From assembly GCA_977020255.1 (NCBI GenBank), contig CDROCS010000148.1:186001-250000 (forward strand): a DNA stretch of 64,000 nt, in the 5' to 3' direction. This document shows, piece by piece, positions 9,130-64,000 of the stretch; the stretch's first letter is position 1; every line of letters starts with the position of its first letter. The translations under genes were made by a program, and so were the position numbers. This DNA is from Obrimoposthia wandeli. Its lineage: Eukaryota. The notes below the pieces were generated by a model. That model had not been told where the DNA came from. It did not search any database and saw only the letters and a list, made by a program, of their open reading frames with translations.

Positions 9130-9800
9130 ATCTATGAAGAACAACCATCAACATCTGAAAACCAGACATCCAACTTTTCAGCAAGACATGGATGGTTCAA
9201 CAGATTTTAAAATACGGATTTGTTACATAATATTAAAATAAAAGGTAAACTAGCATCCGGTGATGAAAAAGCTGGGAAAAATATCCAACAAAACTTGCAC
9301 AAACTATTGAGACCAATTCCTGCGCTCCTGATCAGATGTTTAATGCGGATGGGATCGGTTTATTGTGGGAAAAATGCCACAGAGAACGTATTTGGCCAAA
9401 TCTCAAAAAGTATCACGCGAGCATAAAGCTGCAAAAGATCGTGTAACCTTATTGTGCTGTAGTAATGCAACAGGAGATCGTATAATGAAGCCCTTCGTTA
9501 TCAATAAATCGTTAGCATCACGAGCATTTAAAGGAATAAAAGTGAAAAGCCTTCCTATTCATTGGATGGCCAACAAGAAGGCTGGGGTTACTACAAAAGT
9601 TTTTACTGAATGGTTTCATAAGTGTTTTGTTCCTGAAGCCAAAACGTATAAGTCTGAAAAAGATTTGGAACATGAAAATGTGCAGATTATATTTTTGTCA
9701 CCAAATATAACATGTTTAATACAGCCTTTAGATCAGGGAATCATTTTCAATTTTAAAGCACTCTACATCGAACACGTCATTTATGACAAAGACTAGATCT
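9130..9800 (+). mobile_element. pogo/Tigger (DDE_1, CENP-B-like) transposase pseudogene
   Basis: FSARHGWFNRF, QMFNAD, MPQRTY, KAAKDRVTLLCCSNATG and PNITCLIQPLDQGII; frameshifted and internally deleted. Confidence 0.92.
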
Positions 9801-10089
9801 GAAACCATCACCAATCTGCCAATTATCGATCCAGAATCACCACAAACTATTTCAAATACTGTTTTGTTTTAAAAGAAATTCACATAGTTTCTTTTGATTT
9901 GAATGCTTTTTCTTTGAACGAATATGTAGGTTTGTATGGAGTTTAAATCTCGATTGATAAAGTTGTAATAAAGGTTTTTAATAAAGTTGGAATCAATCAC
10001 CTGATTTTCTATACTGTCTTTGTTAAGTGATTGATAAACGAATTAATAATATTTATTCCACAAATCAAATATGGATAACAATAATTAGT

Positions 10090-10488
10090 TCTGAATCCTG
10101 AACTGTAACAACAATTATTTCATGTTTTCAATTATAGCTCTGAATCTCTGAATCCTGAACGATAGTAACAATTATTTCTGGTTTTCAATTATAGCTCTGA
10201 ATCTCTGAATCCTGAGCGATAATAACAATTATTTCTGGTTTTCAATTATAGCTCTGAATCTCTGAATCCTGAACGATAGTAACAATTATTTCTGGTTTTC
10301 AATTATAGCTCTGAATCTCTGAATCCTGAACGGTAGTAACAATTATTTCTGGTTTTCAATTATAGCTCTGAATCTCTGAATCCTGAACGATAGTAACAAT
10401 TATTTTTGGTTTTCAATTATAGCTCTGAATCTCTGAATATCTGAATCCTGAACGATAGTAACAATTATATCTGGTTTTCAATTGTAGC
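10090..10488. repeat. 57-bp minisatellite, about 7 units
   Basis: The unit tctgaatcctgaacgatagtaacaattatttctggttttcaattatagctctgaatc starts at 10090, 10147, 10204, 10261, 10318, 10375 and about 10440. The consensus unit has stops in all six frames. Confidence 0.95.
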
Positions 10489-11077
10489 AATAATGATAAT
10501 CTTGTGTTGCTTTTCAAACTGTAGTTTCAATCGAATAATTTTTGTTCTTATGTGACTTCTGCATAAATATAATTGTTAATTTATAGTCACACAACACATA
10601 CGCACACAAACCACCACATGACCATGTCAGTCACACTGGCAGTCGACACCAAAAATCAATATATTCCCATGTGTGTGTGTGTGGCAGCATCTGTGGCAAG
10701 GGAAATTACCATTCTCATGCATACACGCATAGAACCAAAATGTCAAAGTTCATAAAAATGCCAATTGCACAAATTTCCCTAATTAAGGAAATTTCTTAAT
10801 TAAATAATTTTTATTTTAATATTTTAATAATTTTTATTAAAACTGTCTCAAATGCCCAAAATATTCTCAACAATCCTCCGCGTCATAAAAGTCTCTGTCC
10901 TCAGAAATATGATTTATATTTTAATTGTATAATAAAACTATTTATAGTCTTGTGTTTCCATTGTTAAACTAGTGTTGATTGTATGGAACAAAGTATCATT
11001 GTGTTTACTAATCACAAACATGTTTGGTTAACAAAATTGTTAAATAATAAAAATAAGACAAGAAAAAAAATACTACC

Positions 11078-12025
11078 TTATTCCAACAAAATCGAGGAAT
11101 TTTGTGTACCGGACTCCGGATTTCCGATCCTATATGAAAACGATGAACTGGGGTTGTTCTCGCTAGGTGGTGGATTCATCACCTCGGTCAAATCAAACTT
11201 CCTATTTAACATTTCTTTCTGAGTTTCTATATTTAAGTATTTTTGCACCATGTTGGCGAGTCCAATATTTGAGTGATTGTGATTTAATTCAGCTTTTATG
11301 CTTTTAGATATTCCCAAATCAACGATGTTAAATAACATCCATTTCTGCAGGCGTAAAGCTTTCAAATCGTTTGTTAGTCCTACACCTACGATGATGTTAC
11401 CATACACAATGTTTCTTACTTCCTCAATTACTTCATCAGCATCTCTACATCCTTGTAACTTTCTATCTGACAGTCCAGTTATTCTAGTAACGTAATTTCT
11501 TACTCTGTCTCTAGTTACGCACAGTGTATCTATAATTACGCTGCCTATGTAATTTATAATAGAAACACTTGCTAAAACTGGCTGTTTATCTACTGATATT
11601 ACTATTTCACAATCGATGAACAAAATTGCTGGTCTCTGTGCGTTTTTTAACTCAAAAAGGGCTATTTGTTGAGGTTCTTCTGTCTTTCTTATTTTTTCGA
11701 TAAACAATAGATTTGGTCCTCTTCCTATTTTGATGCTATATTGATTTTCCAATTGTGCTGCTTGTAAGGTGTAGGTGTGATTTCCTATCATCAGAAAGTT
11801 TAAGGTCTTATCTGATTTGGTTTTTAAATGGGCTACTCCTAGTGCCACGTGAATATCTATTTTTTCACAATTATTATCGGGAAATAACTCGCTGAGAGCC
11901 ATATGGGTTGGTCTTTTTTCATTGGAAAAAATAAGCGCGCTTGTTCTTTCCTCTGTGGTAATTTGTAACTTATTGTTGTTGATGTATTTCTCTGTAGCGA
12001 TTATCCATTTCTTTAAGTCGTAATT
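11078..12025 (-). CDS. DEDDh 3'-5' exonuclease (REX1/REX4/ISG20-like) domain with unknown N-terminal region; frame open 12025-11078, first ATG 11902
   Basis: ExoI FIDCEIV (D at ~11612, E at ~11606), LASVSIINY.G.VIIDT, V.NY.T.ITG and ExoII IIVGVGLTNDLKAL (D at ~11366). The ExoIII H..D motif was not found in any frame. Confidence 0.8.
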   Translation of the reverse strand, partial: NYDLKKWIIATEKYINNNKLQITTEERTSALIFSNEKRPTHMALSELFPDNNCEKIDIHVALGVAHLKTKSDKTLNFLMIGNHTYTLQAAQLENQYSIKIGRGPNLLFIEKIRKTEEPQQIALFELKNAQRPAILFIDCEIVISVDKQPVLASVSIINYIGSVIIDTLCVTRDRVRNYVTRITGLSDRKLQGCRDADEVIEEVRNIVYGNIIVGVGLTNDLKALRLQKWMLFNIVDLGISKSIKAELNHNHSNIGLANMVQKYLNIETQKEMLNRKFDLTEVMNPPPSENNPSSSFSYRIGNPESGTQNSSILLE

Positions 12026-12830
12026 TTAATAACGCTAATTCGTCTGTGTTTGGAGTTGTTTCTGCATTTTCTATAGTGTGGATAGAGTTTCTTGGGGTAT
12101 ATTGTTGATCTTGAGTATTGAATTGTACTGTATTTTGAACTTGGGGTTGCTGTTTTATTGTTGGGTTTCCAAATTGATTCATCATTGTGTTTAATTTTCC
12201 AGTCATCGGTGTTAGTATTTTTCATATTACAAATCTTACAAAATTTTGTATCGTTATTAAAATATATATTTTGATTATTGTAATAATTGTTTGGTTTATT
12301 GAAGTTATTATTCCTTGGTAGTGTATTATTACTTTGTCTATTTATTAATTTTCTACAAGTTTCAATTGTGTGATTGTCTTTTTTGCAAAATCTGCAAAAT
12401 TTTATGTTACTTATTTTTCGACAATTTTCTATTGTGTGATTTTGGAGTCCACAATTTGTGCATTTTTGAAAAGATCTTTGTGTAAATTGTGAGTTTGTAA
12501 AATTTCTATTTGACTGATTTCTATAAAAATTATTTATTGGTGGTCTAAATTGTTGATGATTTTGAAAATTATATTTAGTATCTGGGTTAAAATTCTGAGT
12601 TTGGTTGTAGTTTGGTGGTGTTTGTGGTCGTTCTATTTTTTCAAAAGATAATGCTGAAACCTCGGTTTGCTGTAACATATTTAGTCTTGATTCTACTAAT
12701 TGAGATTTTCCTATAGCCTGTTGAAAGTTTTCTACTTCTAGTAATGCAGGGTGATCTCTAATTTTGCTATATAATCCATGTAAAACTTGATGTAAAAGTA
12801 ATCGTTCTCTTTGTGCTTCTTCTATTTCGG
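11970..12830 (-). pseudogene. Gag C-terminal/nucleocapsid region with CX2CX4HX4C zinc knuckles
   Basis: CTNCGLQNHTIENC and CRFCKKDNHTIETC are perfect knuckles; CKICNMKN.. is a third, broken one. The frame is open upstream to ~12830 (PEIEEAQRERLLLHQVLHGL); an indel near 12200 shifts into the 11970-12206 frame. Confidence 0.88.
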
Positions 12831-13470
12831 GAAAGATTTTAGAGCAAGTTGTCGTAATTCGACTGCGAATATATTTGTGGGTTCTCCTACATGTTGTTCT
12901 CGTTGTCTAAATTGATTTAAGTAGTTCTGGTCGGACTGTGCTCCTAAAATCATATTTTGAAAATGTTGAACTAAATGATCCCATGTATCTTTTTGCAGAT
13001 TTGTTAGTCCTCTATAAATGGTTAAGGCAGTGCCTTTTAGGTATGCTGGAAAAACTCTAAGTTTTTCTGGGTCTGTCCATTCGAATGCTTGAGCAAAAGA
13101 ATCATATATATTCAAGAATTTTGGAAAATATGATTTATCATCATTAAATGCGTCTAGTGGTATGTTTAATCTATAATTTTCCATTTGAGGTACTTCGTTT
13201 ATTTGTTCGTTATTTATTTCTATGTTAAGTGGTACTGGTTCTGCCACTGTTTCTGATGTTTCTGATGTCTGAGTCAGATGTTTGTGGTAAGGATAAACTT
13301 TCTGTATCCGAATTTGATGTTAGATTTTGATTTTCAGAGTCGGTTGAAATTAAGAGATCCGTGTGTTGATGAACTAACGGAGTTTCAGGGGAAAATTCGT
13401 TATTGGTTCTAAAATTTATCTGGGATTTAGGTCTCTGTGGTAGTGTTTCACTTGTGTTAGTTCTTATCAA
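12822..13470 (-). pseudogene. Gag N-terminal/capsid (Retrotrans_gag-like) region
   Basis: F..F...FEW...KLRVFPAYLKGTALTIY...TW..L...F and Q...E....FAVELRQLA. The N-terminal part (13225-13470) is in another frame, joined by a 1-nt indel near 13265. Confidence 0.85.
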
Positions 13471-13482
13471 TCTAGTTTGAAT

Positions 13483-13494
13483 GCGCCTCCAGTG
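13483..13494 (-). promoter_or_regulatory. Putative primer-binding site / 5' LTR boundary
   Basis: Minus strand reads ...cttCA C TGGAGGCGC immediately upstream of the gag ORF; the plus strand starts TGAAGA at 13493. The cognate tRNA was not identified. Confidence 0.5.
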
Positions 13495-14449
13495 AAGATT
13501 AGAACTAAGTTTAGATTTTGAAATCTTTGTGTATTGTTCACTATTATCCAGCGTACTGGGTCGAAAATTAATTTACGTGTTTATGTATTGTTGTCTAGTT
13601 TTATTGAAAAACGATTAAATAAAATGTAGATTTAAATAAATTGATTTTTAAAAATAGTCAGGAATTATCTCTACTCTGTGATCAAAATACAGCTCGGTCT
13701 TATGATAATCGATTACCGTGATTTGAGCTGTAAGTCCAAGCAAAGTAATAGAAAAGATTTCTAACTTATTTATATATTTTTAAGCTAAATTTGTTTGTCG
13801 GTATTTTTATTTTAAAAACTGATATTGAAAATTTGTTAATTTAAATTATGTTAAGATAAACTATTTAATATATTTTCAATCAATTACAGGATAATTTTGA
13901 ATCAAAAATCACCAAATTAACTATTGTCTCCAAAACTATGAAAATTAGTCAATTTTGTAACCCTAGTGTATTTGATTTCTAATTTGAATTAGTAAAAATA
14001 TTAAAATAAATTGGTGAAAATCCGAAATCTGTATTACTCTACTTAATAACACGTCTGCAAAATTTCTAATTTCTAATTTTTATTTTTTACAGAAAAATGA
14101 ATTTAAATATGAATTATGTATTTTCACTACTATTATTTTTATTTTATAAATGTATTTTTATTTGCTCCAAACTTCTACTTTAATAGATAAATACAATGTA
14201 CTTGTCCTCAAAAATAACAATGAAAACCCAAACAAAATATCTGGTATGTACCACAACGAATTTTTATTTTGTATCTCTACCACAATTAATAAATTATTCC
14301 AAAAATATAGTATTATTTTATCCAAAATATATCAAAACGTATTTTATAATACTAAAACCTAATAGGAACTTATTCAAAATGTAGCACTTAAAATATTACT
14401 ACAGGTACTGAAAACACAACATAGATAGTAGGAGTATATAAATATTAAT

Positions 14450-36601: not shown

Positions 36602-36915
36602 CTCACTCACTCACTTGCTTTCCTTTGTCCCTCCCTCACTCACTCTCTCACTCACACGCTTTTCTTTGTCACTCATTTTCTCACTCACTCACTCACTCAC
36701 TTACTCACGCCCTCACTCACTCACTCTTTCGCTCACTCACTCCCTCGCTCACTCACTCACTCACTCACTATTTCACTCATTCACTCACTCACTCACTCAC
36801 TCACTTACTCACTTACTCACTCACTCCCTCGCTCACTCACTCACTATTTCACTCATTCACTCACTCACTCACTCACTCACTTACTCACTTACTCACTCAC
36901 TCACTCACTCATTCA
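36602..36915. repeat. Imperfect (TCAC)n microsatellite
   Basis: About 300 bp of tcac units with interruptions. Confidence 0.97.
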
Positions 36916-37861
36916 ATCCCATTCTCGAATTTCTCACGAATTCTCTCAATATGCTTTTTTTTTCTTGTATTTAACACTCTCATTTGCTGTTGATCTTTCT
37001 ACGCTCAATTAACTCCACCGACGTCTGATAGTGCGCTAATTCGCCGACCTAACTGAAATAGTATCAATATATTTCAGTCAAGCATTACTCTGAAATCTGC
37101 CGTACATAATCTCCCTTCGGCTTCAGGCAATATATCTTAGCAATTCTGAAAAAGAAGCTAAGTCATTTCTACTAATGAGAGTTGTTGCTTTTCTCATAAT
37201 GAACTCTTCAAGCGGTTGTACATTACGGGAAATCCTTATTTTGTTGTGTTTGAATTACCTAATCCCAGTTACTACACTGTCAAATGAATGTATTGAAAGC
37301 CTTATTGTCATTATTTTGAATTGCATCGAAATTTCGACTTTTATCTGAAATATTCATTTAAGATATTTTAATTACGTAAAATATAATAAATTTGGGCACT
37401 TACAATACTTGTACCCGTTTTTGAAATCACTTTTAATATTTAACTTCTAATTATTTTTTGACAGTTGAAATTATATTTTTCGAATTTAAATTTCATTTTT
37501 AAACACAGTTTGATATTATATATTTACTAAATAGCATAAAGTATTATTTTATTTTTATTATTTTTATTAAATATTTTACATTTTAATATAGAATTTATTG
37601 TGTGTTTTTATTAATTTTAATTGTACATCAAATACAGCGCTAAAATGGTTTCAAAAAATTCAAATAAGATTTTTCGTTAAAATAAACGGGTAAATCTTTT
37701 ACATCTGCCTAAATTTGGGTATTAAAATTTTAGAGCATGCTTAAATGAAGGTCAGTTAGTGATAATAATTTATTGTAATAAATAAGAGCTGATTCTGACA
37801 TGAATTTTTTCGAAAATCATATCCGTTTTAATTCGTCGGGCCTAGCTTTGCACAATGAATT

Positions 37862-39780: not shown

Positions 39781-40619
39781 AAAATTCATAGGGCTATTCA
39801 GTTTAGACAAGCACCCATTTTAAAACAATATATAGATTTTAATTCAAACAAGCGGGCAACTAGTGTTAATAAGTTTGAATATTAGTTTTACAAATTAAAA
39901 AATAATTCCGTTTACCGTAAAACGGTTGAGAATCTTAAGAGTCGTCTTGGTATTAGATTATGTAATAATGATAAACGGTTTGAAAAATTAGTTTGGAGTC
40001 GTTGGTTTAAACGTCGTATTCAAATAAATTATGATTAGATCGGCCTTCATATATCGGCCAAGCTGTACTTGATCTATCTAAATTACGAATGTATCAATTA
40101 CAATATGTTGAGCTTGAACGGTATAGGCAAACTTTTAATTGTAGTATTAGAATTGTAGCTATGGACACAGATTCTTTTTTCCTTGAATGTGTGAATATTA
40201 ATAAGGATAAATTACTCAAATAAATTATTAAGGATGGGTATTTAAATACGAGTAATTATCCTAAAACACATCCTTTGTATTCGGAAAACTTTAAAGCTGT
40301 AATTGGAAAATTTAAAGATGAAAGTGAGGGTACTGATTATAATGAATGGGTTTTCTTTAAACCAAAATGTTATTCACTTCAAAATAAATTAAGGGCTAAG
40401 GGTATTTATTTTAAACATACTAATTTAAGACACCAAGACTACCTCAATTGCTGTGAAAATGAAGAAATTATTAGTGTTAACCAGTCACGTATAGCATCGG
40501 TTAACCATCAGCTTCATACAACATTTTCCTCTAAAGTTGCTTTAAAATGTTTTGACGATAAAAGGAGATGTGTTAATAAGAATAAAAGCCTTGCATACGG
40601 TCATTTTAATTTAACTTAA
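39781..40619 (+). pseudogene. Polinton/Maverick pPolB C-terminal half, decayed
   Basis: KIHRAIQFRQAP, FYKLKNNSVYRKT (motif B), YIGQAVLDLSK, DTDSFF (motif C), IGKFKDE, KPKCYS, KAKG-like LRAKG and DDKR; contains stops and a frameshift. Confidence 0.92.
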
Positions 40620-57500: not shown

Positions 57501-57842
57501 TAGTCCACACGTCTGCCTCTTTGATCTAGCTCCATTGGAATAACGTTTGTTGTATATGTTTAGAAAATCACATCAAACTCACATGAATTTAAAATATGTT
57601 TAATTTTCTTTCAAATTTTGAAAATCAGAAAAACAACTTTTGAAACAGTTGGCGAATGGTAAATGAAAGTGGAAGAAATTGAGTAATGTAAGAACACAAA
57701 GTCTAAAATAACAATTAATATGGTATAAGCAGCTGACGATACATTTGATAACAGAAATGAAAATAAACGATTTTATAATCGAGTATCATCAGAAGTTTTG
57801 TCACACATAAAAAAACTTTGATATGAAACAAGAGCAGAAGTC

Positions 57843-58029
57843 AGTAGGTGGATGTGTCCGGTCTAATCCACACCCCCCTCCCCCACTTGTCCTTTAAAAC
57901 CGTGCATGTGTGTGGAGTGAAATTTCGTGTAGGTGTGTGGAGTGAAATTTCACTCCACACACATGCACGGTTTTAAAGGACAAGAGGGGGGAGGGGGGGT
58001 GTGGATTAGACCGGACACATCCACCTACT
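57843..58029. mobile_element. 187-bp non-autonomous Polinton-like element made only of two ~85-bp inverted arms
   Basis: Begins AGTAG and ends CTACT. Arms 57843-57926 and 57944-58029 are near-perfect reverse complements. Flanked by the 6-bp direct repeat GAAGTC (57837-57842 and 58030-58035). Confidence 0.8.
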
Positions 58030-59334
58030 GAAGTCAATAAAATTTTCGTTTAAAGTTGTGAAACTTGTAAGAGAAATAAAACTTTAAAAATTAGGATTGA
58101 AGAAGATTTTTAATACTCAAGATGAAAAGAACTATTGTACTGAAAAACCATTGTGTATTCTTGAAGCTCCAATAGTCGTACACGCATAGATGAAAACGTT
58201 TTGAAAGGACCACATTACTGAAATTACTGCATAAATGTAGTTTATGTTGAACGTGACACATAAAATGCTCCCGAGGAGTCTCCAGCAGAATTGGGAAGGA
58301 AAATATCCAGAGAATGTGTTGACGAAATAACAGTAAAATAAATATTGATTTGTGAAATTGGAAGAAAGCTCAAAATTTGCGTTGGTGTCTTAGTAAAATT
58401 ATACATCAGAAACAACACTGAGTGCAAATATGATGGGGGTTGAATAAATTACAAAACCGATTCATCAAAGAAGTTTTGAACTAAAGGTGCCAAATGGAGG
58501 ACATAATCAGAAAGATAGAATGATGTAAAACCTTTGAAAAGAGAAGGGTGTGAGAATTATTTACTGTTATTTTATTTGTGTATGTTGTATGTTTGAATAT
58601 TGCTCATTGCTCATGAGAATATCTGTTTAAAATTCGATATTGTGGGGCGGAAATTGTGAATAAAAGCATTGTGTAATGAACTGTTGTCTATCTTCTCCTA
58701 TAATTGTTTTAGACAGTGTATCTAAAAGGGAAGTTTGAAACAAGATATTTATTATTTTAAGTCAAAACGAAGAAAACAATTAAATACATTTTACTCTGGT
58801 AAAATACATTTATATTATTTATTCAAAATGTAGGTGGAGATACTACAGAAAACGCCATTTTTGAAGTCATTGTAATTGTAATATGGATTTAATATAAGCG
58901 GAATATTTCGGTGAAAATGTAAATCTATCAAAAAAATAAAAAAGATTAATGAGGAGTATTTTTTTTCCAACTACAACTGTTGGGTCTTATGTTAGTTGTC
59001 ACTCGAGATATTTCTTTCAAATCTCAATTATGGAGTGAAAATACAAAAGAGGAACAATTCTTAGACATTTTCTGTCGGGTGAAATATACATAATCAATTT
59101 AGTTTACTAAGAAAATAAAGTTATTTTTAACTATGCTCACAGTATTTATAAAGAATCATATATTTATATAAATATCATTTGCACCTTAATTTTAAATTAT
59201 AATATTAAATGAATAATAAAATTTTTTAAAAAATTGTCGGCGTGTTTTTTGTTTATTTTGTTATTGTGGAGAATTTATAATTAAATCATAAAGAATATAT
59301 ATAATCTCAATTAGACAGAACTTAGAATCAGAAA

Positions 59335-62408: not shown

Positions 62409-62915
62409 CCCCCCCCATGAAGACAAAATTTTTTAAGATCAAGTTGAGGACAAAAAATGTAGGTCAAGTTAAGGTCACGGTGAGGTCAAGATGTAGGTCA
62501 TGACCTCATGAGGTCATGGGAAAAATCTAGGTCATGACCTCATGAGGTCATGACCCCCCCTATGCTCAGGAAAAATGTCTTTGTCCTGAAAGACACACAT
62601 CAAGTAGGGTGATGTGTGTCTTTCAGGACAAAGACATTTTGAGCATACCCCCCCTTGAGCACAGTTTAAGGTCACGATGAGGACATGACCTCATGAGGTC
62701 AACTTAAGGTCACGGTGAGGACAAGATGTAGGTCATGACCTCATGAGGTCAAGTCAAGTTAAGGTCAATGTACTTTAAGGTCAACTTAAGGTCATGACGT
62801 CATGAGGACAATGTACTTTAAGGTCAAGTTAAGCTCATGATGAGGACAATGTACTTTAAGGTCAACTTAAGGTCATGACGTCATGAGGACAACTTAAGGT
62901 CACGGTGAGGTCAAA
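62409..62915. repeat. Polinton subterminal AGGTCA/AGGACA repeat array with central ~45-bp hairpin
   Basis: By my count 20 AGGTCA on + and 4 TGACCT. Inverted arms 62561-62602 and 62610-62647 surround AGTAGGG. Confidence 0.9.
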
Positions 62916-64000
62916 AATATTCTATTTTAGTAACATTCTTTAAATCTATATATCTTTTTATCAAAAGACTGTATTAACACCAATTCAACAAAATACATCT
63001 AGTGTGTGTGTGTTTTATAATTTAAATTAAATTATCTACTTATAAAATAAAGTATTATATAATTTGATAAATTTATTTAAATTAAATTAAATTAAACTAT
63101 CTACTTATAAAATAAAGTATTATATAATTTGATAATCATGTTTAAACGTTCCTATATCTATCTAACAAAGACAGTCACGTACTGCATCTATATTGATAAA
63201 ACCTGCAAATTTATGTAATCAATAGTAACAAGTACTACATTTATTCCTATACATGTGTATATATATATGTGTGAGTGTTTAACAAAGACAGTCACGTACT
63301 GCATCTATATTGCAAAAACCTGCAAATTTATGTAAATACCAATAATTTTAAAATAAAGACAAGTATTTCTAACACATATATTCCTTAAAATCACAAAGGA
63401 GAAAAAGGAAAAAAAACAACAACACATATAAAAAGTTTATACAACCTCGTCCGGGTATAAAAAGTGACCATAGGCGACTGAACGGTTTTTCTCCACCCAC
63501 TTGCGCTTATCATCACTACTACTTAAGGCAATTTTACTTAACCTTACAGTGAAAAGTTGATGATTTAGCGAGCTTATACGTTGTTGTTGTACACGCTCGC
63601 TAACGCCACTCTCATATACGGCTAAGTAATTAGAGTGCCTAATACTCGTCTGTCGGAGACTAATACCTTTCGCTCTCATCTGAGATTCACCTTCTGTAGT
63701 CTCTAGGCTATATGATTTTGGTCGTAGAAAAATCCCTTGCCTATAACTAAATAATCCCTTACTCTCATCTTTAAATTTTCCTATCGCTGTATTAAGCGTC
63801 GTATAAAGCGGATGGATTTTTGGAAATTTCGAGGTATCCAACAGTCCATCAGCAATCATAGCAGGTAACAGTGATTCTTGAACATTTACATTATTACACT
63901 TAAAAAAAAAGCTATCAGTGTCACCCGCTATAATTCTAATGTCGCAGTTAAATTGAACTCGATATTTCTCAAACTGCTCATATTGTAGCTCATACATACG
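62603..64000 (-). mobile_element. Polinton/Maverick end (continues beyond window)
   Basis: The terminus-like AGTAGGGTGATGTGT resembles AGTAGGTGGATGTGT of the 57843 element. pPolB points toward it with its stop 834 bp away. Local tandem duplications occur at about 63030-63135 and 63163-63335. Confidence 0.8.
63437..64000 (-). CDS. Polinton/Maverick protein-primed DNA polymerase B, C-terminal part (uninterrupted frame, 5' end outside window)
   Basis: GDTDSFFF (motif C), LDTSKFP..HPLY, IGKFKDE, LRPKSYS, RAKG, KIALS..DDKR and SVAYGH. Confidence 0.93.
   Translation of the reverse strand, partial: RMYELQYEQFEKYRVQFNCDIRIIAGDTDSFFFKCNNVNVQESLLPAMIADGLLDTSKFPKIHPLYTTLNTAIGKFKDESKGLFSYRQGIFLRPKSYSLETTEGESQMRAKGISLRQTSIRHSNYLAVYESGVSERVQQQRISSLNHQLFTVRLSKIALSSSDDKRKWVEKNRSVAYGHFLYPDEVV

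Follow-up and report, generated by a model that had tools for sequence, protein, structure and literature searches.

A dead Ty3/gypsy copy in Obrimoposthia wandeli points to an env-bearing retrotransposon family with a two-domain DEDDh exonuclease as its last gene

Results

The locus in the window is a dead copy with an internal deletion

We analyzed a 64,000-nt stretch of the Obrimoposthia wandeli genome (contig CDROCS010000148.1, positions 186,001-250,000; hereafter the window, in which coordinates are counted) that carries on its minus strand the remains of a long terminal repeat (LTR) retrotransposon with an exonuclease gene, and compared it with related copies in the genome assembly searched (G000). 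In the direction of the element, the locus begins with a remnant of the 5' leader (13573..14423) that matches copies L051 and L054 up to 14423, about 230 bases short of their primer-binding site (PBS). Behind it lies gag (11976..13572), which tblastn recovers in four pieces (13572-13228, 13268-12825, 12840-12202 and 12203-11976) with frame changes near 13250, 12830 and 12200 and with its 3' end cut off, and which is 80-94% identical in DNA to gag of other copies. The capsid likeness and CCHC knuckles described in an initial annotation of this DNA are both present, the former as a Retrotrans_gag match that remains below the cut-off (E 0.001) and the latter as two nucleocapsid zinc knuckles (12462-12421 and 12396-12355). 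At a deletion junction (11974..11976) about 8.0 kb are gone by comparison with longer copies. What then follows is the remaining part of an N-terminal double-stranded beta-helix (AlkB/cupin fold) domain (11640..11974, placed with a model of the same domain from copy L041) and an ISG20/REXO4-like DEDDh exonuclease domain with its tail (11078..11640). A purine-rich tract (10873..10895), found as the same stretch in all four copies compared, precedes a TG...CA 3' LTR (10021..10872), with G000 matches starting at 10872 and stopping at 10021; this LTR contains a 57-bp tandem array of 6.9 copies (10090-10488).

The exonuclease occupies an intronless frame of 315 stop-free codons (11078-12025) on the same strand as gag, in which the ExoI (11614-11606) and ExoII (11380-11366) motifs reported initially are indeed found. 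This frame has no start codon of its own, and ExoIII is missing from it, with 20 codons gone near 11215 that are kept at a twin locus on contig C4624. Its Pfam matches are to DNA_pol_A_exo1 (E 9e-6) and RNase_T (E 0.006). No second LTR, and hence no 5' LTR, is present among the window's repeats. A PBS-like site had also been described, but the PBS motif of the family, located behind the 5' LTR in other copies, does not occur in the window, and this copy likewise lacks the splice donor; a 9-mer starting with TGG at 13483-13491, which we guess to be the site that was meant, lies in gag coding sequence. The window copy is thus a dead fragment that serves only as a pointer to its family.

The initial annotation had placed the exonuclease directly behind gag in an overlapping frame. 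This adjacency is an artefact of one deletion in a dead copy. Specifically, the deletion at 11975 removed the end of gag, env, protease (PR), reverse transcriptase (RT), RNase H (RH), integrase (IN), a coiled-coil open reading frame (ORF) and the start of the exonuclease ORF, and the two frames overlap only because of the resulting join. Among the 30 best exonuclease loci in G000, 27 run upstream into the end of pol, one is cut within the ORF, and two join gag, namely the window and contig C4624. The latter shares about 9 kb with the window at 98-99% identity and, because the flanks are shared as well, represents the same insertion, probably as its other haplotype. A 35-mer spanning the junction occurs twice in G000 with up to two mismatches allowed, so the linkage is confined to one insertion; the adjacent gag 31-mer has 481 exact copies, and 7,273-8,038 bases separate the two sides of the join in six of six copies measured. 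It is hardly credible that the locus represents a distinct small element type in which gag is followed directly by the exonuclease. The join is real in the sequence and recurs in a second contig, yet that contig holds the insertion already seen in the window, the reading frame is not kept across the join, which also removes the ORF start, and the window gag is frameshifted and its 5' LTR missing. We rejected this element type since the join exists at a single insertion only.

Complete elements carry the exonuclease as their last gene

In G000 there are 3,918 candidate matches to the exonuclease domain, and among the 150 that were scored, at 89-100% identity, three contain an internal stop. A full-length element, the reconstruction of which had been proposed in the initial annotation, was recovered with RT, RNase H, integrase and LTR pairs. 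Complete copies, bounded by TG...CA LTRs of about 1.0-1.5 kb, are 13.9-14.9 kb in length. From the 5' LTR onward they contain gag-env-PR-RT-RH-IN in one frame plus an extension, the coiled-coil ORF (138 codons), the accessory ORF with the exonuclease (380-391 codons by type), and the 3' LTR. The reading in one frame comes from copies set side by side, as each scanned copy is broken by stops or frame changes at differing places. In L041 and L039 the Pfam matches over the cut-off run in the order env (PF24664), protease, RT, RNase H, integrase and RNase_T, and the fusion glycoprotein (PF24664, Monjiviricetes_fusion, E 6e-53 to 1.5e-64) lies in frame between gag and protease. From its pol order PR-RT-RH-IN the element appears to be a Ty3/gypsy element (Metaviridae), and LTRs, target duplication, PBS and purine tract are all present. 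The exonuclease is therefore the regular last ORF of an LTR retrotransposon family, true cargo as the initial annotation had proposed, separated from gag by pol and followed by the 3' LTR, and the insertion of a stray processed pseudogene was rejected. The codon style, however, is not the uniform one described initially: in the one copy measured, G+C content at third codon positions (GC3) is 0.31 in the exonuclease ORF versus 0.17 in pol and 0.19 in gag-env.

The LTR pairs of eight copies are 94.2-99.9% identical, and 4-bp target duplications are clear in five of six copies, the remaining one lying in an AT run; these two observations indicate that the family moved recently. Among eight copies of nuclease type A (types A, B and C are described below), a clean LTR pair is found in four, a tandem arrangement in one, and no pair within the stretches compared in three. 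The target duplications read AATG (L052/L043), AATG (L055/L045), CATT (L057/L035), CATG (L151/L148) and ATAT (L152/L149), which may reflect a preference for targets with a central AT.

Two further parts of the element differ among copies. The extension behind integrase (L041:3387-4691, L047:1987-4692, L050:1313-2539) has hydrophobic, signal-peptide-like segments, differs among types A, B and C, and has no Pfam match. In each of the three types the nuclease ORF has a small coiled-coil ORF ahead of it (L041:4868-5284; L040:4493-4846; L107, L116); the A and C versions of this small ORF are 34% identical, the B version is not alignable with them, and in type A the small ORF has a splice acceptor of its own.

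The accessory protein has two domains and an intact DEDDh active site

An AlphaFold model of the whole accessory protein (mean predicted local distance difference test score, pLDDT, of 79) contains two confident domains. The C-terminal domain of copy L041 superimposes on human ISG20 with Z 21.6 and a root-mean-square deviation (rmsd) of 2.1 A over 162 residues. PAN2, DnaQ and SDN1 come next in the structure list; this list also contains DnaQ, TREX1 and ExoX at Z 14.6-15.6, RNase D at Z 10.7 and WRN at Z 10.0. The nearest solved structures by sequence are ISG20 (1wlj, E 1.5e-8), ISG20L2 and SDN1, all of them RNases, although identity to ISG20 and ISG20L2 is only 23-26%. The catalytic D, E, H and D are invariant in 18 of 18 aligned relatives and the ExoII position is acidic throughout (D in 15, E in 3); among 34 G000 frames the ExoI Asp is present in 32 and ExoIII in 31. 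The family thus has the full DEDDh set (ExoI D-x-E, ExoII D, ExoIII H-x4-D), which the window copy with its missing ExoIII does not, and a Tyr-type DEDDy ExoIII was not found, the ExoIII His being invariant in the same 18 relatives. The enzyme class named in the initial annotation, a REX/ISG20-type DEDDh exonuclease, is therefore borne out. Since the nearest relatives are RNases, the accessory protein is predicted to be a 3'-5' RNase acting on single strands.

The N-terminal domain of L041 folded alone (pLDDT 93.8) is a double-stranded beta-helix. AlkB-type proteins (Ofd2, Z 10.1, rmsd 2.9, 127 residues aligned; ALKBH6, Z 10.0, rmsd 3.9, 131 aligned; of 139 residues) and cupins (Z 9.9, rmsd 3.1-3.2, 97-100 aligned) tie as its closest folds, and it has no Pfam match. 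The H-x-D...H metal ligand set is not conserved in 22 aligned rows, in which one His (21/22) and one Glu (18/22) are kept. This domain is probably a non-catalytic binding module. A search of the ESM Atlas gave no usable match for the N-terminal domain and, for the whole protein, nothing but matches below 0.9 to clusters of generic exonucleases, a result that says nothing on novelty.

Three nuclease types have been exchanged as a 3' cassette

G000 contains three types of the nuclease, A (391 codons), B (380) and C (387), whose domains are 44-51% identical with synonymous sites saturated; type C alone has at least 150 copies at 96-100%. Types B and C are 98.5% identical in RH/IN amino acids (proportion of synonymous differences, pS, 0.019) but only 44% identical in the nuclease. 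At the DNA level they are 97% identical over 5-5.8 kb of pol in four of four type-C copies, and the match ends over the coiled-coil and nuclease ORFs. Because the two types ride on nearly identical pol yet differ in this cassette, the 3' cassette has been swapped, and the nuclease gene diverges far faster than pol.

In four metagenome loci, a further copy that is catalytically dead immediately precedes the active one. These upstream pseudo-nucleases are two-domain ORFs open over 460-490 codons (L125:7268-8740, L126, L128:6861-8246, L130:49-1434) in which the catalytic residues are replaced and no YAG stands ahead of the start. Among the relatives L124, L125, L128, L130 and L131 there are extra aspartic-protease stretches, one of them behind integrase in L125, L128 and weakly L131. 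Within this set, polyproteins ending in ankyrin repeats are found (L125 and L128 only), as is a ubiquitin-like ORF that follows the nuclease. In G000, contig C6461 (L069) has 2.7-kb tandem units, each combining a part of the nuclease ORF with LTR sequence.

The cassette is transcribed as a spliced subgenomic RNA

At 383 places in G000, a splice donor motif is located behind the PBS. Exact donor-to-acceptor joins occur in seven places at two loci, where the PBS region is joined to the acceptor before the coiled-coil ORF and gag-env-pol is gone. These precise joins are reverse-transcribed copies of spliced RNA, and the 3' cassette is thus transcribed as a subgenomic RNA. One of the loci (C2540:436000-461400; L068, L140-L145) is an array of at least six units of LTR, PBS, coiled-coil ORF and nuclease ORF, and the other, on C5082 (L146, L147), is a single retro-copy with its own, 94% identical LTR pair.

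A YAG stands immediately before the start codon of 10 of 16 nuclease ORFs, as opposed to 570 of 22,190 ATGs (2.6%) in the same loci; the 16 ORFs represent about 10 lineages, with the YAG signal in six. In type A, a YAG lies 1-4 bases upstream of the start in 51 of 52 contexts. We infer that the nuclease ORF is likewise expressed from a spliced subgenomic RNA with its donor just behind the PBS.

The nuclease is under purifying selection and is common to distant elements

Using unbroken frames of at least 330 codons, the ratio of nonsynonymous to synonymous divergence (dN/dS) of the type A nuclease is 0.08-0.15 in three of three pairs, and the corresponding polymorphism ratio (pN/pS) of shared variants is 0.08 (18 copies). 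For type B, the three pairs have values of 0.12, 0.17 and about 0.6, and the overall value (10 copies) is 0.26.

A word-indexed protein search gave a single relative, and a search of the full library (1.84 billion representatives) recovered the family with 1,908 matches, the N-terminal domain being found in 18 of the 150 listed. The P0142, P0077 and P0078 clusters among the relatives of the accessory protein lie on ENA contigs whose length is repeatedly 15-17.6 kb and so matches that of a whole element. We compared 11 metagenome loci, which do not count as independent hosts since 10 of them are from one assembly. In all four that extend into pol, the nuclease is preceded on its own strand by RT, RNase H and integrase (64-69% RT/RH identity), and L124 also has env (PF24664) ahead of protease. 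Relatives in viral contigs were not confirmed (0 of 24 pattern matches).

In a quick tree of 71 domains, a branch with a Shimodaira-Hasegawa-like approximate likelihood ratio test (SH-aLRT) value of 100 separates 30 element-type rows and two short proteins from 39 cellular-type rows. Thus element rows split off from cellular REXO4-like rows in the kind of tree that the initial annotation had suggested, but this tree is unrooted (midpoint for drawing only), its 41 non-element rows comprise 11 that were hand-picked and otherwise every fourth match, and it gives no donor or date. None of the 39 cellular-type rows scored with the N-terminal domain profile. By these comparisons the nuclease capture is old and common to distant elements, so that of the capture by this family proposed initially the cargo stands and a recent or family-specific event does not.

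The strongest RNase_T matches in G000 are not relatives, as none of 30 such loci matched any element protein, and four of them look bacterial when viewed in longer stretches. Contigs C506, C163, C3199 and C1117 are gene-dense and intronless with matches like DNA polymerase III epsilon or RNase T, and many similar matches are also on C253, C361 and C1802. These stretches indicate that the assembly probably includes symbiont or contaminant genomes.

Other features of the window

Beside the LTR end, the unrelated flank contains a decayed DDE_1 (pogo/Tigger-type) transposase fragment on the plus strand (9344..9796; PF03184, E 5e-26). Elsewhere in the window there is an 8-bp microsatellite-like array (36637-36968), a frame of 131 aa that looks like the end of a family-B DNA polymerase (40224-40619; Polinton-like, recognised by eye), a long hairpin with arms of 58 and 47 nt that are 93-94% complementary, as at the ends of Polintons or miniature inverted-repeat transposable elements (57841-58031), and a degenerate array of 27-43-bp units (62461-62919).

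Discussion

We put at roughly 0.95 the probability of our overall reading, that the window locus is a dead, 5'-truncated and internally deleted copy of a high-copy Ty3/gypsy element whose last gene is an AlkB/cupin-DEDDh accessory ORF that is under purifying selection, common to distant elements and exchanged as a cassette. As for what this ORF does, the accessory protein may act as a free-standing 3'-5' RNase on single strands that serves counter-defence, a prediction to which we give about even odds. In such a role the beta-helix domain would pick the substrate or partner, and the nuclease would trim or destroy host silencing or sensing RNAs, whether PIWI-interacting RNAs (piRNAs), small interfering RNAs (siRNAs) or aberrant RNA of the element itself that feeds them.

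Counter-defence is favored because the gene is encoded outside the polyprotein, because its evolution and exchange are much faster than those of pol, and because it is found among host-interaction modules; in relatives, ankyrin and ubiquitin-like modules and a dead paralogue accompany it. SDN1, a structural relative, trims Argonaute-bound small RNAs and so provides a precedent (PMC6123492, in the part covered here). Several points weigh against our reading of the family and of its nuclease. A shared fold alone shows no function, and the selection seen within types is purifying, not positive. The selection counts are also biased to low dN by their restriction to unbroken frames, and one of three type-B pairs is even so near 0.6. 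No retro-copy has the donor joined directly to the nuclease ORF (0 matches to the exact pattern, type A only), which is why the nuclease mRNA is inferred. All loci were retrieved via the nuclease sequence and therefore give no frequency for nuclease-less sister elements. Finally, the DEDDy ORF of rotifer elements has no clear link to copy number in the part of its description covered here (PMC5408684).

The nuclease could instead help replication by processing the element's own RNA (the genome 3' end, primer tRNA, oligo-U or poly-A tails, or RNase H leftovers) in or near the particle, which we regard as possible but hold only tentatively. Such a function would fit the strong purifying selection, the same position of the gene in all three G000 types and in all four metagenome contigs reaching pol, and the presence of the PAN2 deadenylase among the close structures; the spliced cassette RNA was also reverse-transcribed and hence enters particles at times, and 3'-end processing has been proposed for the rotifer ORF in the part of that study covered here (Rodriguez et al., PMC5408684). 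It is less easily reconciled with a separate ORF outside the packaged polyprotein, or with three versions that are only 44-51% identical serving pols that are 91-98.5% identical. Furthermore, to our knowledge most Ty3/gypsy elements replicate without such a gene. A role directed at DNA, such as proofreading for RT or the trimming or clearing of cDNA ends that would aid a 14-kb genome or hide cDNA from sensing, is unlikely: although the elements are long, ISG20 is weakly active on single-stranded DNA, and DnaQ, TREX1 and ExoX share the fold list, the nearest relatives are RNases (ISG20, ISG20L2, SDN1 and PAN2) that rank well above the DNases, and the nuclease is not fused to RT. A neutral passenger, a host cDNA captured without benefit, as the difference in GC3 from pol might suggest, is very unlikely and is contradicted by the selection pattern. 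The catalytic residues are fixed between types even though synonymous sites are saturated, the gene has been kept by elements whose RTs are no more than 64-69% identical, and a long branch sets the element-borne copies apart from cellular REXO4-like matches.

With regard to known systems, GAG-ENV-POL errantiviruses with an ENV of herpes simplex virus (HSV)/gB type are described from Platyhelminthes, Nematoda and Bryozoa, including Smed_errantivirus_1 to 6 (Chary and Hayashi, PMC13524379). The family described here resembles them in having a Ty3/gypsy pol and env between gag and pol, and its env has many motifs in common with the Smed_errantivirus_1 ENV in a by-eye comparison of a partial, unaligned row (PMC13524379). 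This likeness to a planarian element and the low GC content suggest a flatworm as host. In contrast, the main text and seven supplements of that description contain no mention of an exonuclease or DEDD, and the main text no mention of a nuclease or of an ORF behind pol (PMC13524379). Burro/GYPSM1 of planarians is similar in that env lies in frame between gag and protease, with mononegavirus fusion-protein matches and two or three CCHC knuckles (Arkhipova and Yushenova, PMC6431247). Ankyrin and ubiquitin-like modules are listed for Burro and are carried here by the metagenome relatives (PMC6431247). However, Burro exceeds 30 kb and has a 4,873-aa ORF1 with MATH, BIR, BCL2 and dUTPase modules, as compared to about 14.5 kb for the present family, and no exonuclease is listed for it in the part of that paper covered here (PMC6431247). 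Pfam detects none of the Burro modules (MATH, BIR, BCL2, ankyrin, dUTPase) in the G000 frames scanned, and in neither size nor modules does the G000 family match Burro.

An exonuclease as retrotransposon cargo has a published counterpart in the DEDDy ORF3 of Juno and Vesta LTR retrotransposons and of Terminons in bdelloid rotifers (Rodriguez et al., PMC5408684; also PMC5718144 and PMC6338049), though for a different DEDD subfamily. Rotifer ORF3 is likewise a DEDD-family 3'-5' exonuclease with intact catalytic residues in a separate ORF behind pol, but as described there it is of the DEDDy type (RNase D, mut-7, WRN and Rrp6 type) and stands in place of env (PMC5408684). The protein described here is instead of the DEDDh type and is fused to a beta-helix domain, and its elements have env, evidence of splicing, cassette exchange and dead paralogues. 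Cellular ISG20, ISG20L2, REXO4 and plant SDN1 share its DEDDh fold and catalytic residues, with the element proteins forming their own branch. A parallel for the N-terminal domain is found in orchid Ty3/gypsy elements, where an AlkB/2-oxoglutarate-dependent dioxygenase (2-ODD) accessory ORF encodes an active N6-methyladenosine (m6A) demethylase close to plant AlkB (Alvarado-Marchena et al., PMC9289625). There too a beta-helix domain is an extra ORF of a gypsy element, one proposed, in the part of that report covered here, to counter surveillance at the RNA level (PMC9289625). Unlike the orchid protein, the present domain has no Pfam match, ties between AlkB and cupin folds, has no conserved two-His-one-carboxylate set and is fused to a nuclease. 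In the literature searched, which did not extend to Repbase and Dfam, we came across no gypsy element described with a DEDDh/REXO4-type ORF. Reported exonucleases in nematode Cer elements were not confirmed in the literature searched. The two-domain DEDDh cargo is apparently undescribed in this form, while an env-bearing backbone and exonuclease cargo as such are already known.

These results add an overlooked gene to the recently described GAG-ENV-POL errantiviruses. This single accessory gene has an intact active site and candidate copies numbering in the thousands; one genome contains three exchangeable versions of it, and genomic copies prove that a spliced cassette RNA is made. Considered alongside the DEDDy ORF3 of rotifers, the gene suggests that the capture of 3'-5' nucleases by LTR elements has happened more than once. 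Counter-defence proteins from retrotransposons are barely known in animals. A more specific version of the counter-defence reading, rather doubtful at present, is that this env-bearing gypsy lineage encodes a dedicated suppressor of RNA silencing, in which a dead AlkB-like reader would steer an ISG20-like nuclease to modified small RNAs, for example 3'-methylated piRNAs. The suppressor would be made from spliced RNA, swapped like a specificity cassette, and sometimes paired with a pseudo-nuclease regulator or decoy. If this were true, the element would encode an enzyme directed against an animal's piRNA pathway.

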